The notes: generated by a model from the sequence alone, not told the origin. Shown: positions 1 to 16,749, counted from the first letter of the stretch. The stretch: DNA of 31,289 nucleotides from a virus (IMGVR_UViG_2734482594_000020); one strand, 5' to 3'. Numbers and translations are program-made.

Positions 1-573
1 ATGTTTTGCGAAGAAAAAGTAGCTCAAATGGCTGCATACCTACTTCTTAAGCGAGGTGGGCGCATGGCATATCTGAAATTGATGAAGTTGCTCTATCTGT
101 CTAACCGCCAGTCGATTTTGAAGCATGGCAGGATGATCGGCGAAGATAGCCTTTACTCTATGAAATTTGGACCAGTCATGTCGAATACGCTGAACTTGAT
201 TCGCGGTAAGGCTGAAGGCATTGGTGACTACTGGTACAACTTGATAGAGACGAACGGGCATAATGTATCGTTGCGTTCAGATCCGAGGGAAATGGATGCA
301 GACGAGGTCTTTGATGAATTGAGTCGTGCAGATATCCGGATTTTAGATGAAATCTATTCTCGGTATGGGCATATGAACCGATTTGATCTCGCAAATATGA
401 CGCATTTAGAAAGCGTTTGTCCAGAGTGGCACGATCCTGGCAATTCTCGTAAGCCTATAGACCTGAAAGAAATGCTGATCAGTGAGGGTAAAAGCGAGGA
501 TGAGGCTAATCGCATAATTGGCAAAATGGAAGAATCTCAGAAACTTAAGGAATTTTCTTTGCAATTATCATGA
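1..573 (+). CDS. Panacea-domain (DUF4065, GepA/SocA-like) protein, putative antitoxin-type component; N-terminus may be cut by the window edge
   Basis: 190-aa ORF with the 'KLMKLLYL' and 'FGPV' motifs I associate with COG3600/DUF4065 proteins; stop overlaps the start of the next ORF (ATGA at 570-573); region looks AT-richer than the phage backbone by eye. Confidence 0.55.
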   Translation: MFCEEKVAQMAAYLLLKRGGRMAYLKLMKLLYLSNRQSILKHGRMIGEDSLYSMKFGPVMSNTLNLIRGKAEGIGDYWYNLIETNGHNVSLRSDPREMDADEVFDELSRADIRILDEIYSRYGHMNRFDLANMTHLESVCPEWHDPGNSRKPIDLKEMLISEGKSEDEANRIIGKMEESQKLKEFSLQLS

Positions 574-989
574 CGGATTATCAGCCATACAGGAAAGGAA
601 CTGTGCTTGCCCCAACTGGGCCATGCAATCATCTTCATGTGATTTGTAATGATCCTGTTTATTACCCCGTTAACGATTGTTATTGTGTTTTAGTTGTTAA
701 TATTTCTAGTATCAAGGATGGTGTCCCCCACGATCCGTCTTGCGTCTTGAATTCTGGTGATCATCGCTTTATCAAGCATCCAAGTTATGTTGTTTACGCT
801 GAAGCTATAATTTGGCGAGTGGATAACATGGTTAGAAAGCAGCGATCGGGTGAGATTTCTGTTCATGATGATATGCCAGAAGCTACATTCAATAGAATTC
901 TGGACGGTTTTGATATCTCTGATGAAGTTACGCCAAAGAACCTTAAATTTAAAAATAAATATTGCGTATCATCTATTGATGATGAGTAA
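570..989 (+). CDS. hypothetical 139-aa protein, candidate toxin/effector partner of the Panacea-domain gene
   Basis: ORF translationally coupled (ATGA overlap) to the upstream gene; AT-rich; no family recognised by eye. Confidence 0.45.
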   Translation: MTDYQPYRKGTVLAPTGPCNHLHVICNDPVYYPVNDCYCVLVVNISSIKDGVPHDPSCVLNSGDHRFIKHPSYVVYAEAIIWRVDNMVRKQRSGEISVHDDMPEATFNRILDGFDISDEVTPKNLKFKNKYCVSSIDDE

Positions 990-1028
990 ACAACAGGAAT
1001 TGTTTCGGTATAACTTCAGGAGTTTTCT

Positions 1029-1202
1029 ATGGAAGATCAAAAAGCAACCAAGCCACAGGTTAAGTTCGACACAATGAAAGCATTCGCAGGTATGGGTGCT
1101 GCTGTTGAAGTTCTGATGAAGGCTGCTCCTAATGCGTTCACTCACGCTACTGTCTCTGGTAAAGAGCAGCAGGGTAAGCTTCGTCGTCGCAAAGCAGCAT
1201 GA
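1029..1202 (+). CDS. small hypothetical protein (57 aa)
   Basis: ATG at 1029 preceded by AGGAG (1017-1021) with a 7-nt spacer; ends TGA 1200-1202 just before a strong terminator; below the ORF-track size cut-off. Confidence 0.35.
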   Translation: MEDQKATKPQVKFDTMKAFAGMGAAVEVLMKAAPNAFTHATVSGKEQQGKLRRRKAA

Positions 1203-1221
1203 TCATAGCTGGTGCTTTTTG

Positions 1222-1250
1222 AAAACCCGCCTTTAGGCGGGTTTTTTATT
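1222..1250. terminator. bidirectional rho-independent terminator between convergent operons
   Basis: Perfect hairpin AAAACCCGCC-ttta-GGCGGGTTTT followed by a T-run on + and, via the A-run, on the minus strand; lies between the + cassette and the minus-strand early operon. Confidence 0.7.
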
Positions 1251-1531
1251 TAGTGATGTTCTTTGCCCTTCTGTTTGCTTGTTCTGACCTGTTCCCACTC
1301 GATACGTCCTTCTTCTCGTCTTTTGTCTATGTATTCCGCAAGATCCTGAATATTGATGCAACGTTTTGCTTTTTGTGATGTGCCGATGCGATATGTTGGA
1401 ACGGGCAACTTACAAGCGTTTGCTTTTGCTTCTGCCGTGGCTGGACTCATGCCAAAGTACTTTTGGCTAACTGCTGAGAGTTCAATGTTAGGGGTATTGA
1501 ATTCAGCCATCAGTAAAAACAAGGTGTTCAT
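1250..1531 (-). CDS. PrtN-family / excisionase-like small DNA-binding protein
   Basis: Start 'MNTLFLL...' matches my recollection of PrtN-family proteins; ATG at 1531 preceded by GGAGAAA on the minus strand; last gene of the early-left operon. Confidence 0.5.
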   Translation of the reverse strand: MNTLFLLMAEFNTPNIELSAVSQKYFGMSPATAEAKANACKLPVPTYRIGTSQKAKRCINIQDLAEYIDKRREEGRIEWEQVRTSKQKGKEHH

Positions 1532-1567
1532 AATTTTCTCCATCAAAACCGGCTGCACCCGGGAAAA

Positions 1568-2140
1568 TCATAATTCTGTGCTGGTGGCAGGAATTAATTT
1601 CTGCCAGATAGCGGAAACATATTTTGCCTGATGACGGGCATCAGCCAGGGCGTTGTGCCGTTCGCCATCGAAAGGCATGTCCATTTTGGGGTCGAATCCG
1701 ATGGAACGCCCAAGCGTAACGATCGTGCGTACATCGTGGTCATTCCAGTATGCCCACGGGCAGATTTGTCCTGCTCGCTCATAAGCTCCACGTAAAATTA
1801 CGTTGTCGAAGGTGGCTCCGTTACCCCAGACTTTTAAATATTTCGTATTGTCTGCGTGCCGGTTAATGAAATGATTTAGTTCTGAGAGAGCATCGCTGAT
1901 CGACAAAGTATCATCAATACAGATTGCAGCTCGTGCTTCAGGGCTTTGTTTCAACCACCACAGGATGGTATCGCCGTCAGGTGTAGCTCCTTGCTTCATA
2001 GCACTGTCTAGGCTGACAACCGCATAGAATTCTTGTCCGATGTCTCCGGTTTCTGGAGTGAAGAACACCGCGCCAATGGAAACGATCGGTGCATCCTTAT
2101 TTTTCCCCATCGTCTCAAGGTCGATCATTAAGTTGTTCAT
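1568..2140 (-). CDS. DnaQ-like (DEDDh) 3'-5' exonuclease
   Basis: 'MIDLETMG' (Exo I motif DxE), 'WGNGATFD' and 'HNALADA' (Exo III H-x4-D) motifs; strong RBS AGGAGGTG before the ATG at 2140. Confidence 0.7.
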   Translation of the reverse strand: MNNLMIDLETMGKNKDAPIVSIGAVFFTPETGDIGQEFYAVVSLDSAMKQGATPDGDTILWWLKQSPEARAAICIDDTLSISDALSELNHFINRHADNTKYLKVWGNGATFDNVILRGAYERAGQICPWAYWNDHDVRTIVTLGRSIGFDPKMDMPFDGERHNALADARHQAKYVSAIWQKLIPATSTEL

Positions 2141-2688
2141 CACTTCACCTCCTGCGGCGGTTCCGGTAGCGGCATCCAGTGAGTTGCTTGCTCAATACCA
2201 TTACCCGGCTTAATCGTTGCTTCTCCTCGCCGGAATGTGCTTCCTGTATAGCGTGCGGAGCATATTAGCGGTTCAACCAGATAGCTATCGAAATTCACCG
2301 AAATAAGCACGTTCTGGTTCTTTTCAGGCATCCGCTCACTACAGCTTATCCAACCATCCGGAGTTACCGGAGAGTTGCCATTTATATCGAAGTTTGGCTC
2401 TGCGTCCTGAACTAGGAGGATGTAACCATTCTTGGCAGTATCAAGTTCTAACGCCTCGGTGACGGTACCGAAATAGCGATTACCTAAATCCGCATCACAA
2501 GTGCTTACATCAATGGAAACCTCCATGCCTTCGATTAATTCTGGCAAGTTGTAAGTTTGGCTTACATGTTCTGCTCCCAGTGATGCCAGTGCAATCCGTG
2601 CCACTTCCATTTGTTCGCCACGGGTAAGCCCGTTATCAAGCGGATTTTTAATGAATAATTCGATACGTTCTTTGGTAATAGTGGTCAT
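2140..2688 (-). CDS. DUF551-domain phage protein
   Basis: C-terminal 'ATHWMPLPEPP' signature typical of DUF551; position in the early-left operon. Confidence 0.6.
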   Translation of the reverse strand: MTTITKERIELFIKNPLDNGLTRGEQMEVARIALASLGAEHVSQTYNLPELIEGMEVSIDVSTCDADLGNRYFGTVTEALELDTAKNGYILLVQDAEPNFDINGNSPVTPDGWISCSERMPEKNQNVLISVNFDSYLVEPLICSARYTGSTFRRGEATIKPGNGIEQATHWMPLPEPPQEVK

Positions 2689-2690
2689 AG

Positions 2691-2882
2691 CTATTTCACC
2701 TTAATCTCAACATTTCGCAGCTTTAGCTCTACTGGCAGGTCTGACTTTCCTGTTAATGCTAATGCGAGATTTTCTGGGGTAATGAGAGCGGTTATTGTTT
2801 TCCCCATCGCCAGACGAATAATCATTCGTATCTCGCTATCGTCACATGCTCCCGGTCGAACAATTGATATTTGTCCGTTCAT
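2691..2882 (-). CDS. small hypothetical protein (63 aa)
   Basis: ATG at 2882 preceded by AAGGAGA on the minus strand; fills the gap between flanking genes; the track ORF 2691..2963 is trimmed to this start. Confidence 0.4.
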   Translation of the reverse strand: MNGQISIVRPGACDDSEIRMIIRLAMGKTITALITPENLALALTGKSDLPVELKLRNVEIKVK

Positions 2883-2883
2883 C

Positions 2884-3387
2884 TCACTCTCCTTTGATAC
2901 GAATGCCCGCGGCGTGTGGCACATTAACTTCCACGATGCGCACTGTTGGTTTGTACATCTCAATCGCTGTCAGCCAGTCAGCTCCTGTCATGCGCTTTTC
3001 CGCATCGCCATTAGTCCACTGAACCGGTACACCAATAGCCTTCATCGCGATTTCTATTTCCCCGGCAATGGCGCTTTTCCCGCAACCAGTAAAACCAGAG
3101 ACAACGACAAGAACTTCACCTTTGGCTGGTTTTATTTCCCGTGCTTCCAGTTCTGCAATGCGTTTGCTTTGGGCTTCTCGTTCATCCAACAGCGCCTGCA
3201 CTACTTCAGGGTTGAAAGCAGCAGCAAGACGGCTGGCGGTATAGTTAATACCCTCGTTGCGAGCCTCAGCACGTACTTCATCGAATTTACGCACCAGATA
3301 CTCAGCATTTGTTTCATTCACTTTCAGATCTCGTGGTACACATTTCCCGCGAAGAAACCCTTCCATTTCGAAAACATTCATGCGCAT
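2884..3387 (-). CDS. hypothetical early protein with a Walker-A-like motif (VVVSGFTGCGKS)
   Basis: 167-aa ORF; start overlaps the stop of the upstream gene; GxxGxGKS after a hydrophobic strand but only about 60 residues follow. Confidence 0.5.
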   Translation of the reverse strand: MRMNVFEMEGFLRGKCVPRDLKVNETNAEYLVRKFDEVRAEARNEGINYTASRLAAAFNPEVVQALLDEREAQSKRIAELEAREIKPAKGEVLVVVSGFTGCGKSAIAGEIEIAMKAIGVPVQWTNGDAEKRMTGADWLTAIEMYKPTVRIVEVNVPHAAGIRIKGE

Positions 3388-3914
3388 TTGCGTAACTCCG
3401 ATAAATCGTTAAAACGTTCCATAAACATCCCGTAGGCATGACCCGGTGCCAGTGGAATCACGTTGAACATCTCTGTTGCCGGGATGCCTTCCAGTACAGG
3501 CCAGAAAGAGCCATCATCAAGCCCGAGATCGCGGCGTTCGGTTGCCAGCATGATGAGATCGGCATATTTCACGGGTGTACTCATAACTGGGGGTAACCCG
3601 TATTTCTCACGGATTACGGCGTCTATTTTTTCTTCCATCCGTTTATAGTCAGGAAGAAGGCGTTTCAGTGGTGCGGGAATGTCCTGGCAATACGCTTCTG
3701 TTGCATCATGCATTAACGCTTCAAAAGCAAATTCCTGCGGCACCAGCTGGCTGCAAAGAACCGCATGTTGGGCGACGCTGTAGAAGTGCGAAAGATGACC
3801 GGCAAAGCGACAGATATTTGAAAGGGAAACCGCGATATCGTTAATATCGATGTCGTCTTTATTTATCTTGTCATAATAAAAATGCTTCCCGGAAAAAGTT
3901 TTAATAAATGACAT
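3378..3914 (-). CDS. HD-domain phosphohydrolase (YfdR-like)
   Basis: 'FAGHLSHFYSVAQHA' and 'LMHDATEAY' His/Asp motifs of the HD superfamily; ATG at 3914 with GGAG 9 nt upstream. Confidence 0.65.
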   Translation of the reverse strand: MSFIKTFSGKHFYYDKINKDDIDINDIAVSLSNICRFAGHLSHFYSVAQHAVLCSQLVPQEFAFEALMHDATEAYCQDIPAPLKRLLPDYKRMEEKIDAVIREKYGLPPVMSTPVKYADLIMLATERRDLGLDDGSFWPVLEGIPATEMFNVIPLAPGHAYGMFMERFNDLSELRKCA

Positions 3915-4041
3915 TTTGTTCTCCACGTATATGCACTGCACCGCGCTGAATTCTGGTAAAAGGAAGCCCTCACCATCCGGTGATTATTGAGTTAATTACG
4001 TTTCCATAAATGCCCCCGCAGGGGCATTTGCAGTAATGAAA

Positions 4042-4866
4042 TCAGGCGGTGAAAGTACCAATAAAGGTTTCTACTTTGCTGTCTTTGAATTTCTCAACAA
4101 GCAGATCACGAAATTCGTTAGCCATTTCTTCCTGCACCGCTTCCAGCTGAATAATGCGCAGAACCAGTACAGGACGATCGCCAGTGATAATGCTGAGGCG
4201 TAATTTAAACGGACGTTCTTTCAGACCTTCAAACGGAACGCATTTAAATTCAAATGCCACTGGCATAATGTCTTTGGTCTTCGCTTCGACAGACTCCATC
4301 AGGGAGCGTTTGCCGCTGAAGTCATTATCTTCAAAATCAGCGGTCTGGTTTGCTTCAATCGTGATTTTACGGACTGCCGCAGCCGCTTTTGTTGCTTGAA
4401 TGGCGTCACCATTAGCATCAAAGCCCACAAGGTAGTCGGCCCAGTCTTCGATCCATTCTGCCAGTGACTTCTGGGAGTTACGCTCGCCGTTAACAGACAA
4501 CAGAGCAGAGAACGGTGCTGTCTTTTTCAGTTTGAGAGTGGCAGTGTTATCTGCGTGACCTGGCTCATCAATAGTACCCAGGTTAAGCACACTGACGGCA
4601 CGCATATTATCGGCATCGATAAAGCAGCGGGTGCCTTCATCTGCAAGATCTTTAGAATAACGGGTAAAATCATCGATGCTGGCAGTGGAAAGTGCACCAC
4701 GGAAACGGAAGCGATTTAAATTAAATTTTTCCAGATCATGAATGCGGAAATTCTCAGGCAATGCCACAGCATCGGCACCAATCTTACTGATAATTTCATT
4801 AACACCCTGAGCAGAAATAAGGGCATGGATTTGATTAATTGCGGTTGCGTCTAAGTTCTGAGACAT
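4042..4866 (-). CDS. DUF2303-family protein (YfdQ-like)
   Basis: 274-aa ORF; length and sequence resemble the CPS-53 prophage protein YfdQ as I recall it. Confidence 0.6.
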
Positions 4867-4931
4867 AATAAGTCCTCACTATATAAAGATATTCAGTGAT
4901 GAGATAAATAATCAGTTTATTACGAACGATA

Positions 4932-5294
4932 TTAACGACCTGCTGCGCGGAGTTTTCCGTCAGGTTCACCGGCAAGAGTCAGTAATTGTCCCTGGTCTTC
5001 CTGCAGAATAGTCAGGCGACCACCGCGATTGACATACATCGGCGTTTCGGTGGTGTCTTCTTCGGAAATTTTCCCGCGGTTAGTCGGGCGAACATATGAG
5101 AGTTTGTGTTTGATTTTCACACGGTTCTCATCAAATGGTTCGATTTCCAGGTTGAGCGAGACCTTACCTTTGGTTTTCGTGTTCATCACACCGGAAGCGA
5201 CTTCACTGAGAACAGCGCCGATTTTGGTTTCAAATACGCCGCCGTCCAGCTCCCCGATAAATGCCTGCACATCAGTACTGCGTTCGCTAGCCAT
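4932..5294 (-). CDS. hypothetical early protein (YfdP-like, 120 aa)
   Basis: Internal ATG at 5294 preceded by GAGGAG (8-nt spacer) on the minus strand; the longer track ORF (to 5525) runs through leader hairpins and has no RBS. Confidence 0.5.
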   Translation of the reverse strand: MASERSTDVQAFIGELDGGVFETKIGAVLSEVASGVMNTKTKGKVSLNLEIEPFDENRVKIKHKLSYVRPTNRGKISEEDTTETPMYVNRGGRLTILQEDQGQLLTLAGEPDGKLRAAGR

Positions 5295-5431
5295 TTTGCT
5301 GCTCCTCATCATATCGACCCTGCAAGGCCGATTAGTTTCTCCACAAAACAGAGAAGAACACCTGCGGTGGCAGCCGCCCGGATGGATTGGGTTATGAGCC
5401 CGTCGTCCGGTGATGCTCTTCTCTGTTTTGT

Positions 5432-5475
5432 AAAAAGAGCGGTACCAGCCGGAAGCAAGTGTACAAACTGGTACC
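5432..5475 (-). terminator. terminator-like hairpin plus U-run inside the early-left leader
   Basis: On the minus strand GGUACCAG-(19 nt)-CUGGUACC is followed by GCUCUUUUUA; sits upstream of the first early-left gene. Confidence 0.35.
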
Positions 5476-5902
5476 GCCAAAGCAGTGGCTGTTGTGGTGG
5501 GGTTGTCACTCAGGTGTATGGTCAACCTGACAATCCGGTGTCCTCAACGGGGAAAGAGTAACCCCGCCATACTTACCGCCGCGCCATTTCGCGGATTACC
5601 ACAACGCTGAGAGCACTTAGCCAGTTACGGCACCACACTTTGTCGCGGTTCCATAAATGCCCTCATCGTTGCACCCTGGTCTCTTCCCAGGCGTCAAACC
5701 GAATCGCCACGCTGGTTAGGCGTCTTATCAGCATCCTCATTGACTTGCACATTCCGGCTACCTGGTTTGTTTGCCCGAGCAAGGAGTGGATTGTCCCCTT
5801 TAACGTCCCCAGACCGCTAACGACGCATGTGCCATACGCCGTGTTACAACCAAATTTTGTCAGGACCTTGTTTGTTGGTCTGGAAAGAAAGATAAAATGA
5901 AA

Positions 5903-5940
5903 TTGCGTAACGTGCAAGTATTTTATTGCGAGATATGCAA
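5903..5940 (-). promoter_or_regulatory. oL-like operator pair with candidate pL
   Basis: Two 15-bp near-palindromes TTGCGtaacgTGCAA (5903-5917) and TTGCGagataTGCAA (5926-5940), 23 bp centre to centre; minus-strand -35 TTGCAC and -10 TATCTT candidates overlap them. Confidence 0.45.
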
Positions 5941-5949
5941 TAGCGTGAG

Positions 5950-5975
5950 TAATGAAAAGCCACCTTCTGGTGGCT
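5950..5975 (-). terminator. rho-independent terminator downstream of the repressor gene
   Basis: Hairpin AGCCACC-ttct-GGTGGCT followed on the minus strand by UUUUCAUU, about 20 nt after the repressor stop. Confidence 0.55.
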
Positions 5976-5996
5976 AATTGATGTTGAGGTAGGGGG

Positions 5997-6689
5997 TTAA
6001 TTGTGTCGCTTAAGGGTTTGTGACTGACTGATTAAGACCTTTCCAAAGACCATAAACCGGTGTTCGTTTTCGCTGGTAATTCCCCATTCGCGGTAAATCT
6101 GATTATCAGAAATTACCAGCAGTTTATCAGGTATCATTTGCAGTCGTTTGACGTAAATTTTATCATCAAAACCAAATACATATATACCATCCCCATCAAA
6201 CTGATTGATACTGATATCAACGAAGATGAGATCTCCTGGCTCAATGGTTGGACACATACTGTCCCCACGAACGTTGATAACTTTAATGTGATTTGCTGGT
6301 CGTCCACCAAACATCGATACAGCATTATCAGTTCTGTATTCAATGGCATGAATCACATCAATGACATCACCGCCCTGGATAAGGCCATTTCCCGCACTGG
6401 CACTGACATCCAGCATTTCAATACGGAATACATCCTTCACCTGCGCAACATCCTCACTAATACTGTTTTTACATACAGTATTACTTTTGAGGTCTGAGGT
6501 AAAGAGATCAGCAATATCAACACCTAAGCTCCTGGCAATATTACTCAGGGCTTGTTCAGTGAATTGTTTCTGCTTACCTGTTTCGAGGCGCGAGATATTC
6601 GCCGCATCCACTCCTATTGCTTCAGCGAGATCGGCGATTTTCATGTTCTTCGCCTGGCGAAGTTGTCTGACTCGATTTCCTATGTTCAT
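5997..6689 (-). CDS. CI-like repressor (HTH_XRE N-terminus, LexA-like S24 peptidase C-terminus)
   Basis: N-terminal HTH ('IADLAEAIGVDAANISRLETGK'); C-terminal 'GDSM' serine and 'VKRL' lysine of the self-cleaving S24 fold; divergent from a Cro-like gene. Confidence 0.9.
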   Translation of the reverse strand: MNIGNRVRQLRQAKNMKIADLAEAIGVDAANISRLETGKQKQFTEQALSNIARSLGVDIADLFTSDLKSNTVCKNSISEDVAQVKDVFRIEMLDVSASAGNGLIQGGDVIDVIHAIEYRTDNAVSMFGGRPANHIKVINVRGDSMCPTIEPGDLIFVDISINQFDGDGIYVFGFDDKIYVKRLQMIPDKLLVISDNQIYREWGITSENEHRFMVFGKVLISQSQTLKRHN

Positions 6690-6709
6690 GCGTTTATTAC
6701 ATTTCTTTA

Positions 6710-6786
6710 TTGCGCGTTAAGCAAATCAACTTGCGCAAAATATTTGCGTGAAATAATATGCTCATCACGCAATATGTGGAGGTTAT
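6710..6786. promoter_or_regulatory. oR-like operator cluster with divergent pRM/pR
   Basis: TTGCGcgttaAGCAA (6710-6724), the 8-bp palindrome TTGCGCAA (6731-6738) and aTGCTcatcaCGCAA (6758-6772) share the half-site used at oL; the Cro RBS GGAGG follows. Confidence 0.5.
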
Positions 6787-7047
6787 ATGCAATCACCATT
6801 ACGGAATGTGCGTAAGGCGCACGGATTTACTTTGCAGCATGTTGCTGCGGGCGTTCAGGTCAATCCAGCGACGCTGAGTCGTATTGAAAGACTGGAACAA
6901 ATTCCATCTGTCGATCTTGCAGAACGTCTGGCCAATTTTTTTAAGGGTGAAATCAGCGAAATGCAGATTCTTTATCCGGCACGTTTTCAATCTAGCCAAA
7001 ACCAGAATGGGTTTAAACCACAGGAACAGGAGGTAAGCCGTGGGTAA
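6787..7047 (+). CDS. Cro-like HTH (XRE) regulator
   Basis: HTH 'LQHVAAGVQVNPATLSRIERLEQ'; RBS GGAGG 4 nt upstream; divergent from the repressor. Confidence 0.75.
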   Translation: MQSPLRNVRKAHGFTLQHVAAGVQVNPATLSRIERLEQIPSVDLAERLANFFKGEISEMQILYPARFQSSQNQNGFKPQEQEVSRG

Positions 7048-7591
7048 GCATCATTGGAAAGTGGAAAAACAACCTGAGTGGTACGTGAAAGCTGTCAGAA
7101 AAACTATCGCGGCATTGCCAGGGGGTTACGCTGAAGCTGCTGACTGGCTGGATGTAACAGAGAACGCTTTATTCAACCGCCTTCGTGCAGATGGCGATCA
7201 GATTTTCCCGTTGGGATGGGCAATGGTTTTACAGCGTGCTGCTGGCAATCACCACATTGCGGATGCTGTCGCACAGTCTGCTGGTGGGGTGTTTGTATCA
7301 CTTCCTGAAATTGAGGAAGTAGAGAACGCCGATATCAACCAGCGCCTGCTGGAGGTCATTGAACAGATCGGCAGTTATTCCAGACAGATTCGTTCAGCAA
7401 TTGAAGACGGTGTAGTGGAACCGCATGAGAAGACAGCAATTAATGATGAATTGTATCTGTCAATTTCGAAGCTCCAGGAGCATGCGGCACTGGTCTACAA
7501 AATTTTCTGCGCTCCAGAAAAGAGTGACGCCCGCGAGTGTGCAGCTCCGGGCGTCGTGGCGTTTTGTGTCTGTGGAGAAACTAACGCATGA
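7040..7591 (+). CDS. CII-like / YdaT-like lysogeny regulator
   Basis: GTG start with AGGAGG 6 nt upstream; the position immediately after cro is typical of the CII(CP76)/YdaT family; assignment by synteny and general resemblance only. Confidence 0.45.
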   Translation: MGKHHWKVEKQPEWYVKAVRKTIAALPGGYAEAADWLDVTENALFNRLRADGDQIFPLGWAMVLQRAAGNHHIADAVAQSAGGVFVSLPEIEEVENADINQRLLEVIEQIGSYSRQIRSAIEDGVVEPHEKTAINDELYLSISKLQEHAALVYKIFCAPEKSDARECAAPGVVAFCVCGETNA

Positions 7592-8736
7592 ACAGTTTAA
7601 CGGCAAATAACCGTTTGTCGCAACAGCTGGTGGTCAGTGTCGCTGCACACCTGTTGTTACGGCATGAATGCAGATTACCAAATCACCTGGCTGTAAGTAA
7701 CCACAGAGAACTTTACCTGACTGTGGGGGGCGAGTTGTGCAGGAACTTAACCGCTGGTTTCGTGACGGAAGAGGACTTTATGTTCATGTTATTCGTTGGG
7801 AGCCAGAAACACAGCGCGTTATCTATCTTCGCAAAGACTACCCGCATGAGTGCTTTAGTCCTTTGTGGAAATTCAGGCGTGATTTTGTTGAGTGTGAAGG
7901 ACCACCAGCACATTGATTCTGCCATTCCGGGCCGTTACACTGTTCAGGCACCTTATAAAGCGGGTGCCGGGATTGGCGTCCTGGAATTGCATACGGCGAC
8001 AATTGGCGCGTTAGCGTCTTTTTTGTTGCTACAACTCAGCTATACCCAAATTATGGTGGGCTGGGTGGGGGCACCGAAAGGTGCGCCGGTTTCCGTATGC
8101 GCCGGTTACGCCAACCCTGCTCAGTTCACCACCAGCGAAATTGGCGTTTCCGGTGGTGGAAGTTATCCATTGCATACGGAGGCTGCCATCATGGCTACGA
8201 TCCCTGCCTTAGTTCAACCTGAACTTTGCATTATTGCAGACAAAGTTGTTACTTCTTCTCTGGCTGTTGCTAGTTATTTCGGCAAACAACACAAAAACGT
8301 CATTCAAAAAATTGCGTCTCTTGAATGCTCTGCCGAATTTACTGAGCTGAATTTCCAGCTCAGTGAGTACATCGACGCATCAGGCCGCAAACTACCTTGC
8401 TATCAAATAACCCGCGACGGCTTTGCGTTTCTTGCTATGGGTTTCACGGGTAAACGTGCTGCCCAGTTCAAAGAGGCATACATCAATGCCTTTAACCAGA
8501 TGGAGAAACAGCTTTCAAAGCCCGCTGTACCGAGCGACGTTGCACATAACGCCAGCGTTCTCTGTTCCTACATTTCATCAATTCATCAGGTCTGGCTGCA
8601 GCAGCTTTATCCTATGTTGGCAAAAGCCGAATCTCCGCTGGCTGTTAGCTTATATGACTATATTAATGATGCTTCGGCGCTGGCCTGCCTCATAAATTTG
8701 TCGCTGAACCCTTCAGAGGTAAGGGGGCGCAAATGA
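7588..8736 (+). CDS. Rha/ORF6N-family phage regulatory protein (domain in residues ~202-300); start uncertain, alternative internal start at 8191
   Basis: 382-codon open frame with ATGA coupling to the upstream gene and GGAG before the ATG at 7588; the Rha-like motif 'SSLAVASYFGKQHKNVIQKI' lies after the internal ATG at 8191, which has its own GGAGG RBS. Confidence 0.5.
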   Translation: MNSLTANNRLSQQLVVSVAAHLLLRHECRLPNHLAVSNHRELYLTVGGELCRNLTAGFVTEEDFMFMLFVGSQKHSALSIFAKTTRMSALVLCGNSGVILLSVKDHQHIDSAIPGRYTVQAPYKAGAGIGVLELHTATIGALASFLLLQLSYTQIMVGWVGAPKGAPVSVCAGYANPAQFTTSEIGVSGGGSYPLHTEAAIMATIPALVQPELCIIADKVVTSSLAVASYFGKQHKNVIQKIASLECSAEFTELNFQLSEYIDASGRKLPCYQITRDGFAFLAMGFTGKRAAQFKEAYINAFNQMEKQLSKPAVPSDVAHNASVLCSYISSIHQVWLQQLYPMLAKAESPLAVSLYDYINDASALACLINLSLNPSEVRGRK

Positions 8737-12454: not shown

Positions 12455-12461
12455 GGTGACC

Positions 12462-13451
12462 GTGAGAGCACTACTGACCCCTGAAATTGCCCCGCGTATG
12501 GGGATCGTATTGTTCAGGCCTGGTTCAGAGCTGATGCCCCTGTTTATGCAGGGGCGTGTCCTGCTGGAGCCTGAGCCGGAGCGTTATTCATCTTTCGCCA
12601 GTGGTGCCGTTCCGGCGGCATCACAACCGCTGGCGGATGATCCTGCCGTTCGGGCCGTGTTCCGCAATGAGGCAGTGATCCGTCGTGCTGGTGGCGTGGA
12701 ATGTCTTGAAAGCTGGTTACTTCGTGAAAAAGGCTGCCAGTGGCCTCATTCCGACTGGCACAGCGAGAACATGACCACAATGCGACACGCTCCGGGTGCA
12801 ATCCGTCTGTGCTGGCACTGCGATAACCAGCTGCGCGATCAGTTCACGGAACGGCTGGAATCAATGGCAACGGATAACTGTGCCCGCTGGGTGTTGTCTG
12901 TTGTGCGTCGGGATCTCGGTTTTGATGACAGTCACGTTGTGACAATGCCGGAACTGTGCTGGTGGCTGATTCGTAATGATCTGGCGGATGCCTTACCGGA
13001 AAGTGCAGCCCGTAAGGCACTGAGATTACCGAAGCCTGTTGTGCCGTCTGTTACCCGGGAAAGTGACCTTGTGCCTTCGGTTCCTGCCACCAGCATCATC
13101 CAGGATAAGGCGAAAAAGGTGCTGGCGCTGAAAGTGGATCCGGAGTCGCCGGAGTCTTTTATGTTACGCCCAAAACGTCGCCGCTGGGTTAATGAAAAGT
13201 ACACGCGCTGGGTTAAGACACAGCCGTGTGCATGTTGTGGAAAGCCCGCTGATGATCCCCACCATCTGATAGGTCACGGTCAGGGTGGAATGGGAACAAA
13301 AGCGCATGACCTTTTTGTGTTGCCTTTGTGCAGAAAGCATCACGACGAGCTGCATGCGGATACCGTGGCATTTGAAGAGAAGTATGGCTCCCAGTTGAAG
13401 CTGATATTTCGTTTTATCGATCGCGCGCTGGCAATTGGCGTGCTGGCCTGA
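12462..13451 (+). CDS. DUF968-family protein with C-terminal HNH/zinc-finger-like motif
   Basis: C-terminal 'CACCGK...HH...[12 protein letters not shown]'; GTG at 12462 has better SD spacing than the track's GTG at 12456. Confidence 0.5.
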
Positions 13452-13468: not shown

Positions 13469-13834
13469 ATGCGTGATATTCAAATGGTTCTTGAACGTTG
13501 GGGGGCATGGGTGGCAAATAATCACGAGGATGTCACTTGGTCGTTTATTGCTGCAGGATTTAAAGGACTAATCCCTTCAAAAGTAAAATCCCGCCCGCAA
13601 TGTTGTGACGATGACGCGATGATCATTTGTGGATGCATGGCTCGCCTGAAAAAGAACAACAGCGATTTGCACGATTTATTAGTGGATTATTATGTAGGTG
13701 GTATGACGTTTATGGCGCTTGCCCGTAAACATGGGCGTTCTGATTGCTGGGTTGGGCGTTTATTGCAAAAGGCTGAAGGTGTAGTTGATGGCATGTTAAT
13801 GATGTTAGAAATTGAGCTAGAGATGGATCGTTAG
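13469..13834 (+). CDS. Q: late-gene antiterminator Q (phage 21/82-type)
   Basis: '[18 protein letters not shown]...[12 protein letters not shown]' matches my memory of the Q21-type family; GGAG 7 nt before the ATG at 13469; sits immediately before the lysis region. Confidence 0.65.
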
Positions 13835-13876
13835 AAGACCTCTTATTGAGAGGGTAATTGAATCAGTTTAATGTGT

Positions 13877-13908
13877 GGGGAGTCGATTTATTCTCCCCAT
13901 TTTATTTA
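13877..13908 (+). terminator. rho-independent terminator just downstream of Q (tR'-like candidate)
   Basis: GGGGAG-(10 nt)-CTCCCC followed by ATTTTATTT. Confidence 0.6.
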
Positions 13909-13918
13909 ATTAATTTAC

Positions 13919-14365
13919 TTAAGGTTTTAATTCATCAAGACGTTGTTGGATAGTGTTTTTGCTTGCGTTGTCTGTTATAGCCATTTGTTGTACTTGCCCC
14001 ATTGCCATTTGAGTTTCCATCCACATATCGGCCCACACTTTTGTATCGTTATTAACTTGAGCGATAGTAAATCTGACTTTTGATACCGGGGTTGTTGAAT
14101 AGGCATTGCCGATTAACATTTGTCCAAAAACAGCAGACCCGCCTTCCAGTTCTTTACCACATATAACACTGCTGTTATCCGCGTTGTAAATTATCAACCC
14201 TCTACTATTGCAGTAATTCACAAGGGCATCTTTGACTTTATCTTTTGTCGTATTTTGATAAACCCCCTCAGGTTTTCCTGATTGAGTTTTCTTTATCAAT
14301 GGTACGGAAGAAGTACAACCTGAAATGATAGTTGCGCTAAGTAATAGTACAGTCATTTTATTCAT
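13919..14365 (-). CDS. lipoprotein (antisense moron between Q and the late genes)
   Basis: Signal peptide with lipobox 'IISGC'; AT-rich; own promoter candidate on the minus strand (-35 TTGATT, -10 AATAAT around 14400-14430). Confidence 0.6.
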   Translation of the reverse strand: MNKMTVLLLSATIISGCTSSVPLIKKTQSGKPEGVYQNTTKDKVKDALVNYCNSRGLIIYNADNSSVICGKELEGGSAVFGQMLIGNAYSTTPVSKVRFTIAQVNNDTKVWADMWMETQMAMGQVQQMAITDNASKNTIQQRLDELKP

Positions 14366-14488
14366 GTTTCTTATCCATTGTTAAGGGCATACCTACACAA
14401 TTATTTTTATTGGAGATGAATAATCAACCGTTTACAATCGTAAAAAATCAAATATGCTGTTAAGAGTGGTTACTTCGCCACACAACTT

Positions 14489-14514
14489 AAACCCGCCACT
14501 GAGCGGGTTTTTTG
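14489..14514 (+). terminator. rho-independent terminator
   Basis: AAACCCGC-cactga-GCGGGTTT followed by TTTTGT. Confidence 0.6.
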
Positions 14515-14635
14515 TACCTGTAAACTTGGTGCAGTACAGTAAACACGCTGGTGGTCGTGAATACTGACTTTTTATCTTGCTGGCTTTTTAGACAAGAGTT
14601 ATTGGTATGTCATGTTAACCAGAAGGGAAAAAGAC

Positions 14636-14839
14636 ATGCTAAAACAGCAAGATATGACAGAAACCGCCGCCGCAGTCCTTCATTTCTTACCTGCTGACAA
14701 GTGGGTAACGCCACGCATGATGACGAGAACTACCGGAGTAAGCGAAGCCCAGTGCCAGTTAATACTGACTCAGTTAGTTCTGGCGGGTCTGGCGAAGGAT
14801 AACGGCGGGTACGGGAATAAATTCAGACGCTGCCAGTAA
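14636..14839 (+). CDS. small putative winged-helix DNA-binding protein
   Basis: ATG at 14636 with AGAAGGG 8 nt upstream; helix-turn-helix-like composition is weak evidence only. Confidence 0.4.
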   Translation: MLKQQDMTETAAAVLHFLPADKWVTPRMMTRTTGVSEAQCQLILTQLVLAGLAKDNGGYGNKFRRCQ

Positions 14840-14989: not shown

Positions 14990-16042
14990 ATGAAAAATAC
15001 TGTAAAAATAAACAGTGTTGATTTAATCAACGCTGATTGCCTGCATTTTATTCAGTCCCTGCCTGATAACTCCATTGATCTGATTGTTACCGATCCGCCG
15101 TACTTCAAAGTGAAGCCCAACGGCTGGGACAATCAGTGGAAAGGGGACGAAGATTACCTGAAGTGGCTGGACCACTGTCTGGCCCAGTTCTGGCGGGTAC
15201 TGAAACCAGCCGGAAGCCTTTACCTGTTCTGTGGGCATCGCCTGGCATCTGATATTGAGATCATGATGCGTGAACGTTTCAACGTGCTTAACCATATCAT
15301 CTGGGCGAAGCCGTCCGGACGTTGGAATGGGTGTAATAAAGAAAGTCTGCGTGCATATTTTCCTGCCACAGAGCGCGTTCTGTTTGCTGAACATTACCAG
15401 GGGCCATATCGCGGCAAAAGTGACGGCTATGCGGCAAAAGAAAGGGAACTCAAACAGCACATAATGGCACCGCTGATTTCGTATTTCAGGGATGCTCGTG
15501 CCGAACTGGGTATAACGGCAAAACAAATTGCCGAAGCCACAGGTAAGAAAAATATGGTTTCCCACTGGTTTGGTGCCAGTCAGTGGCAGTTGCCGAATGA
15601 GGCTGACTATCGGAAGTTACAGGCACTGTTTTCCCGTATAGCGGCAGAGAAGTTTCAGGAACAACAACTGGAACAACCACACCACCAGCTGGTGGCATCT
15701 TATGATTCACTGAATCGCAAATATTCTGAATTGCTGGATGAGTTTAAATCTCTCCGGCGCTATTTCTCCGTATCAGTCTCCGTGCCTTATACCGATGTCT
15801 GGATGCATAAACCCGTTCAGTTCTACCCGGGGAAACATCCGTGTGAGAAACCGGCGGATATGCTCAGGCAAATAATCAATGCCAGTAGTCGACCTGGTGA
15901 TCTGGTTGCTGATTTTTTTATGGGATCCGGTTCCACAATAAAAGCAGCAATGGCGCTGGGGCGTCGGGCCTTAGGTGTTGAGCTTGAGTCAGAGCGGTTT
16001 AATCAGACAGTGAAAGAGATAAACGAGCTGGTGGGGAAATAA
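14990..16042 (+). CDS. orphan DNA methyltransferase (N6-adenine/N4-cytosine class, DPPY motif)
   Basis: 'LIVTDPPYF' catalytic motif near the N-terminus and C-terminal 'FFMGSGST' AdoMet-binding motif; no restriction partner nearby. Confidence 0.7.
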
Positions 16043-16048
16043 TCTGGT

Positions 16049-16074
16049 GGCCACGTCAGGTGGCCTTTTTATTT
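16049..16074 (+). terminator. rho-independent terminator between the methyltransferase and the holin
   Basis: GGCCAC-gtcag-GTGGCC followed by TTTTTATTT. Confidence 0.5.
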
Positions 16075-16109
16075 CCATTACACAGCACCCGCATCTGCGA
16101 GGTGGGGTT

Positions 16110-16325
16110 ATGAAATCCATGGATAAGTTAACAACGGGTGTCGCCTATGGCACCTCAGCAGGTAGTGCCGGGTACTGGTTTTTACAGTTGCTCGATAAAG
16201 TCACGCCCTCACAGTGGGCGGCAATAGGTGTGCTGGGTAGTCTGGTATTTGGCCTGCTGACGTACCTGACAAACCTTTATTTCAAGATTAAAGAAGATAA
16301 GCGCAAGGCTGCGAGAGGTGAATAA
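16110..16325 (+). CDS. class II holin / pinholin (phage 21 S-like) with dual-start motif
   Basis: Near-identity by memory to S21 ('MKSMDK...[13 protein letters not shown]...[11 protein letters not shown]...NLYFKI'); two in-frame Met (16110 and 16119) separated by a Lys codon. Confidence 0.8.
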
Positions 16326-16411: not shown

Positions 16412-16749
16412 NNNNNNNNNNNNNNNNNNNNNNNNNNNNNNNNNNNNNNNNNNNNNNNNNNNNNNNNNNNNNNNNNNNNNNNNNNNNNNNNNNNNNNNNN
16501 NNNNNNNNNNNNNNNNNNNNNNNNNNNNNNNNNNNNNNNNNNNNNNNNNNNNNNNNNNNNNNNNNNNNNNNNNNNNNNNNNNNNNNNNNNNNNNNNNNNN
16601 NNNNNNNNNNNNNNNNNNNNNNNNNNNNNNNNNNNNNNNNNNNNNNNNNNNNNNNNNNNNNNNNNNNNNNNNNNNNNNNNNNNNNNNNNNNNNNNNNNNN
16701 NNNNNNNNNNNNNNNNNNNNNNNNNNNNNNNNNNNNNNNNNNNNNNNNN
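16412..16749. other. 338-nt run of N (assembly gap or masked sequence)
   Basis: Direct observation; removes the endolysin body and the Rz start. Confidence 1.

Follow-up and report, generated by a model that had tools for sequence, protein, structure and literature searches.

The window analyzed here is a whole stretch of 31,289 nucleotides (nt) of viral DNA (IMGVR_UViG_2734482594_000020), a lambdoid prophage which is nearly collinear with the temperate phage PhiR40_1 of the ECOR collection. Its source is a lambda-like Escherichia coli prophage, almost identical to PhiR40_1. Genes on the plus strand around the locus under study were identified, in order, as KilA-N, DUF968, Q, a small open reading frame (ORF), methyltransferase, holin, endolysin and Rz. 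The minus strand encodes, in the interval from Q to the late genes, a predicted lipoprotein of 148 amino acids (aa). An earlier note on this DNA had described such a product, antisense to late transcription and with an ISGC lipobox, and both the frame and its signal peptide, with the lipid attachment site at Cys17, were recovered.

The N-terminus of the lipoprotein reads MNKMTVLLLSATIISGC. It shows the parts of a lipoprotein signal peptide, namely a positive n-region (MNK), a hydrophobic h-region (MTVLLLSATI) and the lipobox I-S-G-C, which fits the pattern [LVI][ASTVI][GAS]C. Cys17 was invariant across 21 homologues, and the Pfam lipid-attachment profile LPAM_1 matched 9/21 members of the family (best E value 3e-5). 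Lipoproteins are kept from the outer membrane by Asp at position +2 (the +2 rule, or Lol avoidance). Residue +2 is Thr in the window protein and Ala in most homologues; since it is not Asp, the mature lipoprotein is predicted to be anchored in the outer membrane and to face the periplasm.

A search of a large protein collection returned 31 relatives of the lipoprotein. Full-length homologues, with 49-72% identity, were found in prophages of other genera (Salmonella, Jejubacter, Citrobacter, Xenorhabdus, Enterobacter, Phytobacter and Morganella). In the homologue alignment the frame is kept from start to stop, Cys17 and Cys69 are invariant, and the motifs SGKPEG, GNxYSTTP and KVWADxWxETQM are retained. 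The ratio of nonsynonymous to synonymous substitution rates (dN/dS) was 0.07 for Salmonella versus Jejubacter, 0.13 for the window versus Citrobacter and 0.10 for the window versus Phytobacter; synonymous sites were saturated in the remaining comparisons, and the E. coli alleles differ from one another by 0-3 nt. These values argue for strong purifying selection across genera. The ORF was intact in 5/5 E. coli and phage copies examined, and an open frame of at least 148 codons arose in one of 2000 mononucleotide shuffles of the block 13835-14430. Judged by this conservation the ORF at 13919-14365 is a real, conserved gene; the earlier note had reckoned with a frame that might not be kept in related prophages, and the homologues point the other way. 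In a common E. coli variant (P0033, 126 aa), seen on 104 contigs, the annotation starts at residue 23 (MIKKTQ...) and lacks the signal peptide; either its 5' end has been disrupted in a lineage or its start has been miscalled.

The gene directly upstream encodes the antiterminator Q, as the earlier note had it. Its product matched PF06530 (Pfam, E 1.3e-50) and the Q21 structures 6P18/6JNX (phmmer, E 2.8e-8), and is labelled "antiterminator Q family protein" by PGAP; the mechanical ORF call begins at GTG 13454. PF06530 is the Q21 family (PMC9388147). Based on an alignment of the region 5' of the first late ORF from the window, vB_EcoS-569R4, cdtI and the DLP12-derived part of 434B, a near-invariant block was identified, CTGTTAAGAGTGGTTACTTCGCCACACAACTTAAACCCGCC...GAGCGGGTTTTTT, which in the window extends from the -10 hexamer of a candidate late promoter, pR', through the terminator at 14489-14516. 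The sequence TTTAC(A/G)-16-TATGCT is common to the window and DLP12/434B, both of which have a QuuD-type Q, and in 569R4 and cdtI the -10 column is kept as TAnnnT. The stem of the terminator, tR', is conserved among the aligned phages and its loop is variable. Its hairpin (14489-14510) has a folding free energy (dG) of -12 kcal/mol and a z score of -3.9 and is followed by a T-run; the record of phage Ayreon carries an annotated "terminator" under the stretch that matches tR'. Homology of the window to other phages restarts only from about 14428-14457, and the late leader by itself has matches in >3600 E. coli genomes. Because the conserved block maps downstream, pR', its leader of ~50 nt and tR' are placed beyond the lipoprotein cassette, on its right. 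The cassette thus lies between the Q stop codon and pR', which puts the lipoprotein gene outside the late transcript and not inside the late operon.

The earlier note had held the Q-utilisation site to be unclear, with hairpins at 13877 and 14489 as the candidates. That uncertainty is largely removed by the alignment, which indicates that Q acts at the conserved pR'-leader-tR' unit (14431-14516); the hairpin at 14489 would be tR', and the one at 13875-13900 merely ends the Q transcript. By analogy with Q21 biology, the leader at 14459-14488 is expected to hold the sigma-dependent pause/Q-loading region. The arrangement resembles the Q21-family late cassette in its PF06530 Q, its sigma70 promoter, the strong intrinsic terminator ~50 nt downstream and the S21-type lysis genes that follow. 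It differs from that cassette, in which Q and pR' are adjacent, by ~600 bp of antisense cargo between the two, as is also the case in DLP12 and other prophages. Literature searches found nothing on the conserved leader sequence and nothing useful on a mapped DLP12 pR'. A 37-codon ORF on the plus strand (14454-14567), listed as hypothetical protein XSB42398.1 in PhiR40_1, overlaps the pR' leader and the tR' hairpin and is probably not a gene.

A candidate sigma70 promoter for the lipoprotein gene was tentatively identified by consensus scan. It consists of TTGATT (14427-14422), a 16-nt spacer and AATAAT (14405-14400), 34 nt 5' of the ATG; it and pR' face away from each other, their -35 hexamers 3 bp apart. 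The Citrobacter homologue has TTGATT-17-TATTAT just upstream of the gene. No conserved promoter was present in an alignment of the upstream regions from eight contexts, in which only a leader of ~20 nt was common to the three closest copies. A second minus-strand site, TTAACA-18-TAAAAT (14384-14355), scored higher and was discarded, since its overlap with the start codon means that it cannot drive the lipoprotein ORF. The claim of the earlier note that the gene has its own sigma70-like promoter therefore stands at the level of a 9/12 consensus match at 14427-14400, with a better-scoring site lying over the start codon.

Two plus-strand terminators had also been noted on either side of the gene, and both were found: the hairpins at 13875-13900 and 14489-14510 have T-rich tails on the plus strand only. 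The former has a dG of -13 kcal/mol and a z score of -3.65 on the plus strand and was listed by the terminator scan as well. On the minus strand it has -11.2 kcal/mol and is followed by ACACAUU, with no T-tract on the strand of the lipoprotein gene.

The block 13835-14430 is AT-rich, as had been claimed: its GC content is 0.366, whereas DUF968 has 0.555, the late genes downstream 0.49 and the window as a whole 0.505. The span of 13835-14600 given earlier for the element covers the cassette and runs ~170 nt beyond it, into the late promoter and terminator. In other prophages this slot holds other cargo. It is occupied by the antisense porin gene nmpC in DLP12 (quuD-nmpC-essD), by two unknown antisense genes of ~180 and ~310 aa in cdtI, 569R4 and strain 25-07233 (neither with a Pfam or PADLOC match), and by an antisense HEC-04/OLD-like ATPase-nuclease (PADLOC, E 4e-47) in related prophages. 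The loci with slot cargo are L036 (1343-2794), L037 (1458-2919), the upstream genes of L012 and L013, and, for DLP12, L014. The gap between Q and pR' in Q21-family prophages is best read as an exchangeable site for antisense cargo.

Complete E. coli genomes were searched with a spliced query made of the 3' end of Q and the late leader. An empty Q-pR' junction was found in 0/183 cases; all 183 full-length matches were split in two pieces spanning 1061 bp, i.e. with the cassette present. The word "inserted" in the earlier note is consequently supported by the base composition and by the alternative cargo in the slot and not by a before-and-after pair, this Q allele being joined to the cassette throughout. 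In E. coli O157:H7 NE 1092-2 (L035/L039) the Q-lipoprotein-pR' unit leads another prophage, one whose head is HK97-like, which shows that the unit is exchanged as a module. The late region of that prophage carries tRNA-Ile/Arg/Arg, a TerB-family gene, a SASA esterase gene and the type III secretion system effector genes nleG7 and espS.

As a unit, the cassette was identified in 185/5426 complete E. coli genomes, always on the chromosome, and in two viable temperate phages. Carriers include the uropathogenic E. coli (UPEC) UTI89 (UTI89_RS24780), some O157:H7 strains and poultry isolates, among them strains named avian pathogenic E. coli (APEC). The lipoprotein is annotated as "hypothetical protein" in every one of the E. 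coli carriers.

Close homologues, 31-72% identical to the window protein, were located in prophages or in DNA adjacent to them, at varied positions. In Salmonella the gene is located between gpK and gpI, in Morganella between K and I, and in Jejubacter in a moron-rich gap between K and I/J. It directly follows the tape-measure gene in Citrobacter and on the L010/L011 contigs, where it precedes gpM, and likewise in two Haemophilus species and on contig L021. In Photorhabdus it lies between a likely tape-measure gene and gpM/L/K/I, in Proteus within a tail module, and in Halomonas near a terminase. The Enterobacter homologue is on a P1-like element near darA/ddrB, and that of Phytobacter is in the nin region, flanked by a RecA-like gene on one side and lexA-like/rusA/DUF968 genes on the other. 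The Symbiopectobacterium homologue is a remnant beside icd, a classic lambdoid attachment site. About two thirds of the contexts outside E. coli are lambda-type tail modules. In the tail modules inspected (Salmonella, Jejubacter, Citrobacter and L010) the GC content of the gene is 0.39-0.42 against 0.49-0.60 for the flanks, and a strong intrinsic terminator lies directly 3' of the gene in all four, e.g. GACCCGCTTCGGCGGGTT-TTTTT. Overall the gene differs in GC content from its flanks in 6/7 contexts, the exception being the P1-like Enterobacter element; outside the window the values are 0.39-0.44 versus 0.49-0.60 in five other contexts.

Lambda-type morons were reportedly defined for HK97/HK022 by Juhala et al. 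2000, with HK97 gene 15 as the prototype. By the Hendrix/Juhala definition a moron is extra DNA between genes that lie side by side in relatives, differs from its flanks in base composition, has its own promoter and terminator and is expressed from the repressed prophage. The tail-module copies inspected show the canonical anatomy set out for HK97/HK022 (PMC3594210). The lipoprotein gene shares with the HK97/HK022 morons its position as extra DNA between conserved phage genes, a GC content unlike that of the flanks, a site resembling a promoter and, where it lies in tail modules, a terminator. The moron reading of the earlier note is supported by the difference in GC content from the flanks, by a frame conserved under purifying selection and by the several unrelated phage positions in which the gene occurs. 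It is an ordinary type of element, a prophage lipoprotein moron, from an uncharacterised family.

That family was sought by sequence and by structure. The lipoprotein matched phrog_3152 over its full length (E 1e-104); PHROG 3152 is of unknown function and was the sole family match, in keeping with the statement of the earlier note that the protein resembled nothing recognised. No family was found in Pfam (E <= 0.01), NCBIfam or among PDB sequences, and Pfam at E <= 10 gave just spurious matches and LPAM_1. A profile search of 1.84 billion representatives (50% clustering) yielded 823 matches at E <= 1e-3 and 408 at E <= 1e-10. Some of the remote members (among P0051-P0187) carry PDZ, BamD/CpoB-like TPR, SHOCT or Cys-rich C-terminal extensions, the Cys-rich module of some reading 'KGPGFETY...CEFGNC', and in some the signal peptide is of the ordinary type and not that of a lipoprotein. 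All named remote relatives are labelled "hypothetical", and one of the three distant members whose context was looked up lies among housekeeping genes. All 51 divergent members compared keep Cys52 and Cys69, which implies a periplasmic disulfide.

An AlphaFold2 model of the lipoprotein (confidence score, pLDDT, of 85) showed fold-level similarity to BamC, KA1, Flpp3, DUF4468 and SRPBCC proteins, with Foldseek E values above 1e-3 and identity of at most 15%; no match below E 1e-3 was obtained against BFVD (predicted viral structures) or PDB. For the helix-grip lipoproteins BamC, Flpp3 (DUF3568) and DUF4468 the likeness is one of fold only, with identity of at most 10% and no profile-level homology. 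The lipoprotein is a member of a large, so far undescribed family of periplasmic domains in which two cysteines are invariant and the fold is like that of BamC/KA1. The UniRef label of the Xenorhabdus homologue, "Type IV secretion system putative lipoprotein virB7", was rejected as an automatic lipoprotein-profile name for which there was no other support. No paper naming the lipoprotein accessions or the PHROG identifier was found, and PhiR40.1/PhiR55.1 appear in the literature only as members of a temperate phage panel.

Table 1. Features of the lipoprotein locus and its surroundings in the window (positions counted from the first nucleotide)
Feature	Position	Strand	Description
DUF968 gene	12456-13451	+	upstream of Q
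Q antiterminator gene, Q21 family, QuuD-like	13469-13834	+	121 aa from ATG 13469; PF06530
AT-rich cargo slot	13835-14430		GC 0.366; from Q stop codon to -35 of pR'
Intrinsic terminator, hairpin GTGGGGAG-N10-CTCCCCAT + TTTATTT	13875-13908	+	predicted end of Q/early transcription
Lipoprotein gene	13919-14365	-	148 aa, ATG start, TAA stop; WP_001038608.1-like; PHROG 3152
Signal peptide and lipobox, MNKMTVLLLSATIISG then C	14315-14365	-	read from sequence; Cys17 predicted as acylated residue
Candidate sigma70 promoter of lipoprotein gene, TTGATT-16-AATAAT	14400-14427	-	consensus scan, 9/12 matches
Candidate late promoter pR', TTTACA-16-TATGCT	14431-14458	+	promoter scan and conservation
Conserved initial transcribed leader GTTAAGAGTGGTTACTTCGCCACACAACTT	14459-14488	+	near-invariant in four phages with different upstream cargo
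tR' intrinsic terminator, AAACCCGC-CACTGA-GCGGGTTT + TTTGT	14489-14516	+	putative Q antitermination target
First late-operon ORF	14612-14839	+	75 aa (PGAP: 67 aa); PHROG 331, unknown function
N6/N4 DNA methyltransferase gene	14990-16042	+	350 aa; late operon, between pR' and holin
S21-type holin gene	16047-16325	+	
Endolysin gene			between S21-type holin and Rz; mostly masked by 338-N run at 16412-16749

Elsewhere in the window, a second, early methyltransferase gene is located upstream in the nin region, as in PhiR40_1. Two Rfam matches at gathering score were obtained on the plus strand, isrK (7948-8024, 61 bits) and C4 antisense RNA (8049-8136, 81 bits). They form a P1/P7-type antirepressor-control RNA pair in or beside a rha/ant-like ORF (7588-8736). 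At the left end (1-989, plus strand) two ORFs match, by collinearity with PhiR40_1, a toxin-antitoxin pair annotated as YafM/YafO.

By analogy with known phage lipoproteins and morons, the most likely role of the lipoprotein is envelope-level superinfection exclusion in the lysogen, a proposal that we make tentatively. The explanation as a whole, that of a self-contained moron in a cargo slot which encodes an outer-membrane lipoprotein with an exclusion role, is likewise held at somewhat less than even confidence. The protein would be Sec/Lsp-processed, lipidated at Cys17 and sorted to the inner leaflet of the outer membrane, and its mature part (~131 aa) would form a disulfide-stabilised alpha/beta (helix-grip/BamC-like) periplasmic domain. 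The gene would be read from its own weak sigma70 promoter, divergent from pR', and late transcription would never cross it. From the periplasmic face of the outer membrane the lipoprotein would block an early infection step of lambda-type siphoviruses, either receptor function or the step at which tail tip, tape-measure protein and DNA cross the envelope.

Cor and Llp block infection at FhuA, and HK97 gp15 acts at the inner membrane. Llp of T5 is a phage lipoprotein acting in exclusion (PMC9586334). In experiments, the mEpimmI tail-cluster lipoproteins of temperate coliphages exclude phages by the receptor on which these depend, OmpA or LamB (PMC11893012). The product of HK97 gene 15, a moron beside the tape-measure gene, is of chromosomal-family origin (YebO) and confers superinfection exclusion by blocking DNA entry (PMC3594210). 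The lipoprotein gene resembles HK97 gene 15 in its recurrent position beside the tape-measure gene and in its origin from a chromosomal bacterial family, and its distant chromosomal relatives speak for a defence or envelope role. Unlike gp15, a small inner-membrane protein, its product is an outer-membrane-type lipoprotein of 148 aa with no sequence relationship to gp15; unlike gene 15, the copy in the window is antisense, lies between Q and pR' and has no empty site among the genomes searched. With Cor (phi80/N15/HK022), Llp (T5) and Lpp021/Lpp010 (mEpimmI phages) it has in common that it is a phage lipoprotein with a lipobox, that its gene is often beside tail or receptor-binding genes, and that it is expected to act at the envelope. 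It differs from them in that no sequence or fold similarity and no link to a particular receptor-binding domain was found, and in being about twice the size of Llp. The Bor/Cor-like analogy drawn in the earlier note is accordingly retained as one of function, homology to either protein not having been found. A defence or envelope role is also favored by the nuclease, the porin and the two unknown genes that occupy the Q-pR' slot elsewhere, and the exclusion reading by the tail-module setting of about two thirds of the contexts outside E. coli.

Several observations weigh against an exclusion role or against a self-contained moron. The promoter matches the consensus at just 9/12 positions, and the hairpin 3' of the gene lacks a T-tract on the gene's own strand. 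The lipoprotein matched 0 PADLOC families at E <= 1, and family, PHROG and structure searches revealed no resemblance in sequence or fold to Cor, Bor/Iss, TraT or T5 Llp. The 126-aa variant annotated without a signal peptide may hint at decay in some lineages. The lipoproteins of E. coli and of Salmonella/Jejubacter are 70-72% identical, yet the C-termini of the J proteins of their phages are unrelated, and no co-variation of the lipoprotein with the J receptor-binding domain or the tape-measure protein was found across genera. Three E. coli carriers examined do have J C-termini of one class (63-83% identity) although their tape-measure and head modules differ; as this class is found in 3483/5426 genomes, its presence together with the lipoprotein is uninformative. 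Near-identical alleles (1-2 aa differences) are found on prophages with different tape-measure and head modules, and the tape-measure proteins of the carriers all fall in the broad lambda-H family. The lack of co-variation with J weakens a strict model in which the lipoprotein blocks the phage's own receptor, and leaves a target common to lambda-type tails or a role unconnected with phages.

A more far-reaching form of the exclusion proposal, which we regard as doubtful, is that the lipoprotein is the founder of a new and widespread class of exclusion lipoproteins, unrelated to Cor/Llp, drawn from the undescribed periplasmic family and acting on a shared tail step. Lambda-type siphoviruses of Enterobacterales, Pasteurellaceae and Halomonas would carry the class as a moron, as a rule beside the tape-measure and tail-tip genes, and its target would be the passage of the tape-measure protein or tail tip through the periplasm rather than one specific receptor. 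Such a shared target, if true, would explain the absent co-variation with the J receptor-binding domain.

The domain fusions and the fold suggest another explanation, namely a general periplasmic binding or scaffold domain that tunes a host envelope machine (outer-membrane protein or lipoprotein biogenesis, or a PDZ-protease pathway), with exclusion at most a side effect. We consider it unlikely: the fold matches on which it draws are generic, no conserved partner gene was seen, and the clade at least 49% identical to the window protein occurs only in prophage contexts. A host-fitness or virulence lipoprotein of the Bor/Iss/TraT type, altering the outer membrane of the lysogen for serum or complement resistance, adhesion or stress tolerance, is a still less probable candidate. 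The gene is, like bor and iss, an antisense prophage lipoprotein moron near the lysis cassette (iss follows Rz in strain 25-07233), its carriers include UPEC UTI89, poultry isolates with APEC-named strains and O157:H7, and the alternative cargo of the slot includes an envelope porin, NmpC. Against this, searches linked the lipoprotein to neither Bor (Pfam Lambda_Bor) nor TraT nor any annotated PHROG, and the position between Q and pR' differs from that of Bor/Iss after Rz. Prophages of insect symbionts and pathogens, of Haemophilus, of Halomonas and from environmental metagenomes harbor homologues, mostly in tail modules, and these hosts and positions argue against a role in virulence specific to mammals.

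A function in the lytic cycle, whether in lysis timing, in spanin modulation or as an aid to the tail or injection, would accord with the proximity of lysis genes in E. coli and Phytobacter and with the sense orientation of the gene in tail operons elsewhere, where it would be co-transcribed late. In the window, however, the gene is antisense to and outside the late transcript, and the holin/endolysin/Rz set of the phage is complete without it. A lipidated, Lol-sorted protein is unlikely as a part of the virion, and the position of the gene is too variable for a core function; we find this role quite improbable. Least credible is a decaying passenger with no current function, which was already disfavored. 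The mosaic prophage context and the 104 contigs with the shortened variant are what it would account for, but the dN/dS values of 0.07-0.13 across genera, the invariant cysteines and motifs and the five intact copies are hard to reconcile with it.

The sizeable periplasmic domain family to which the lipoprotein belongs has no Pfam or NCBIfam description; neither it nor the other findings alter current concepts. The slot between Q and pR' is a practical place for finding new defence genes. If the lipoprotein is an exclusion factor, it would be a structurally new envelope-level anti-phage protein, encoded by ~3% of complete E. coli genomes (UTI89 and some O157:H7 strains among them) and by prophages of several other genera, and would be of relevance to phage host range and phage therapy.

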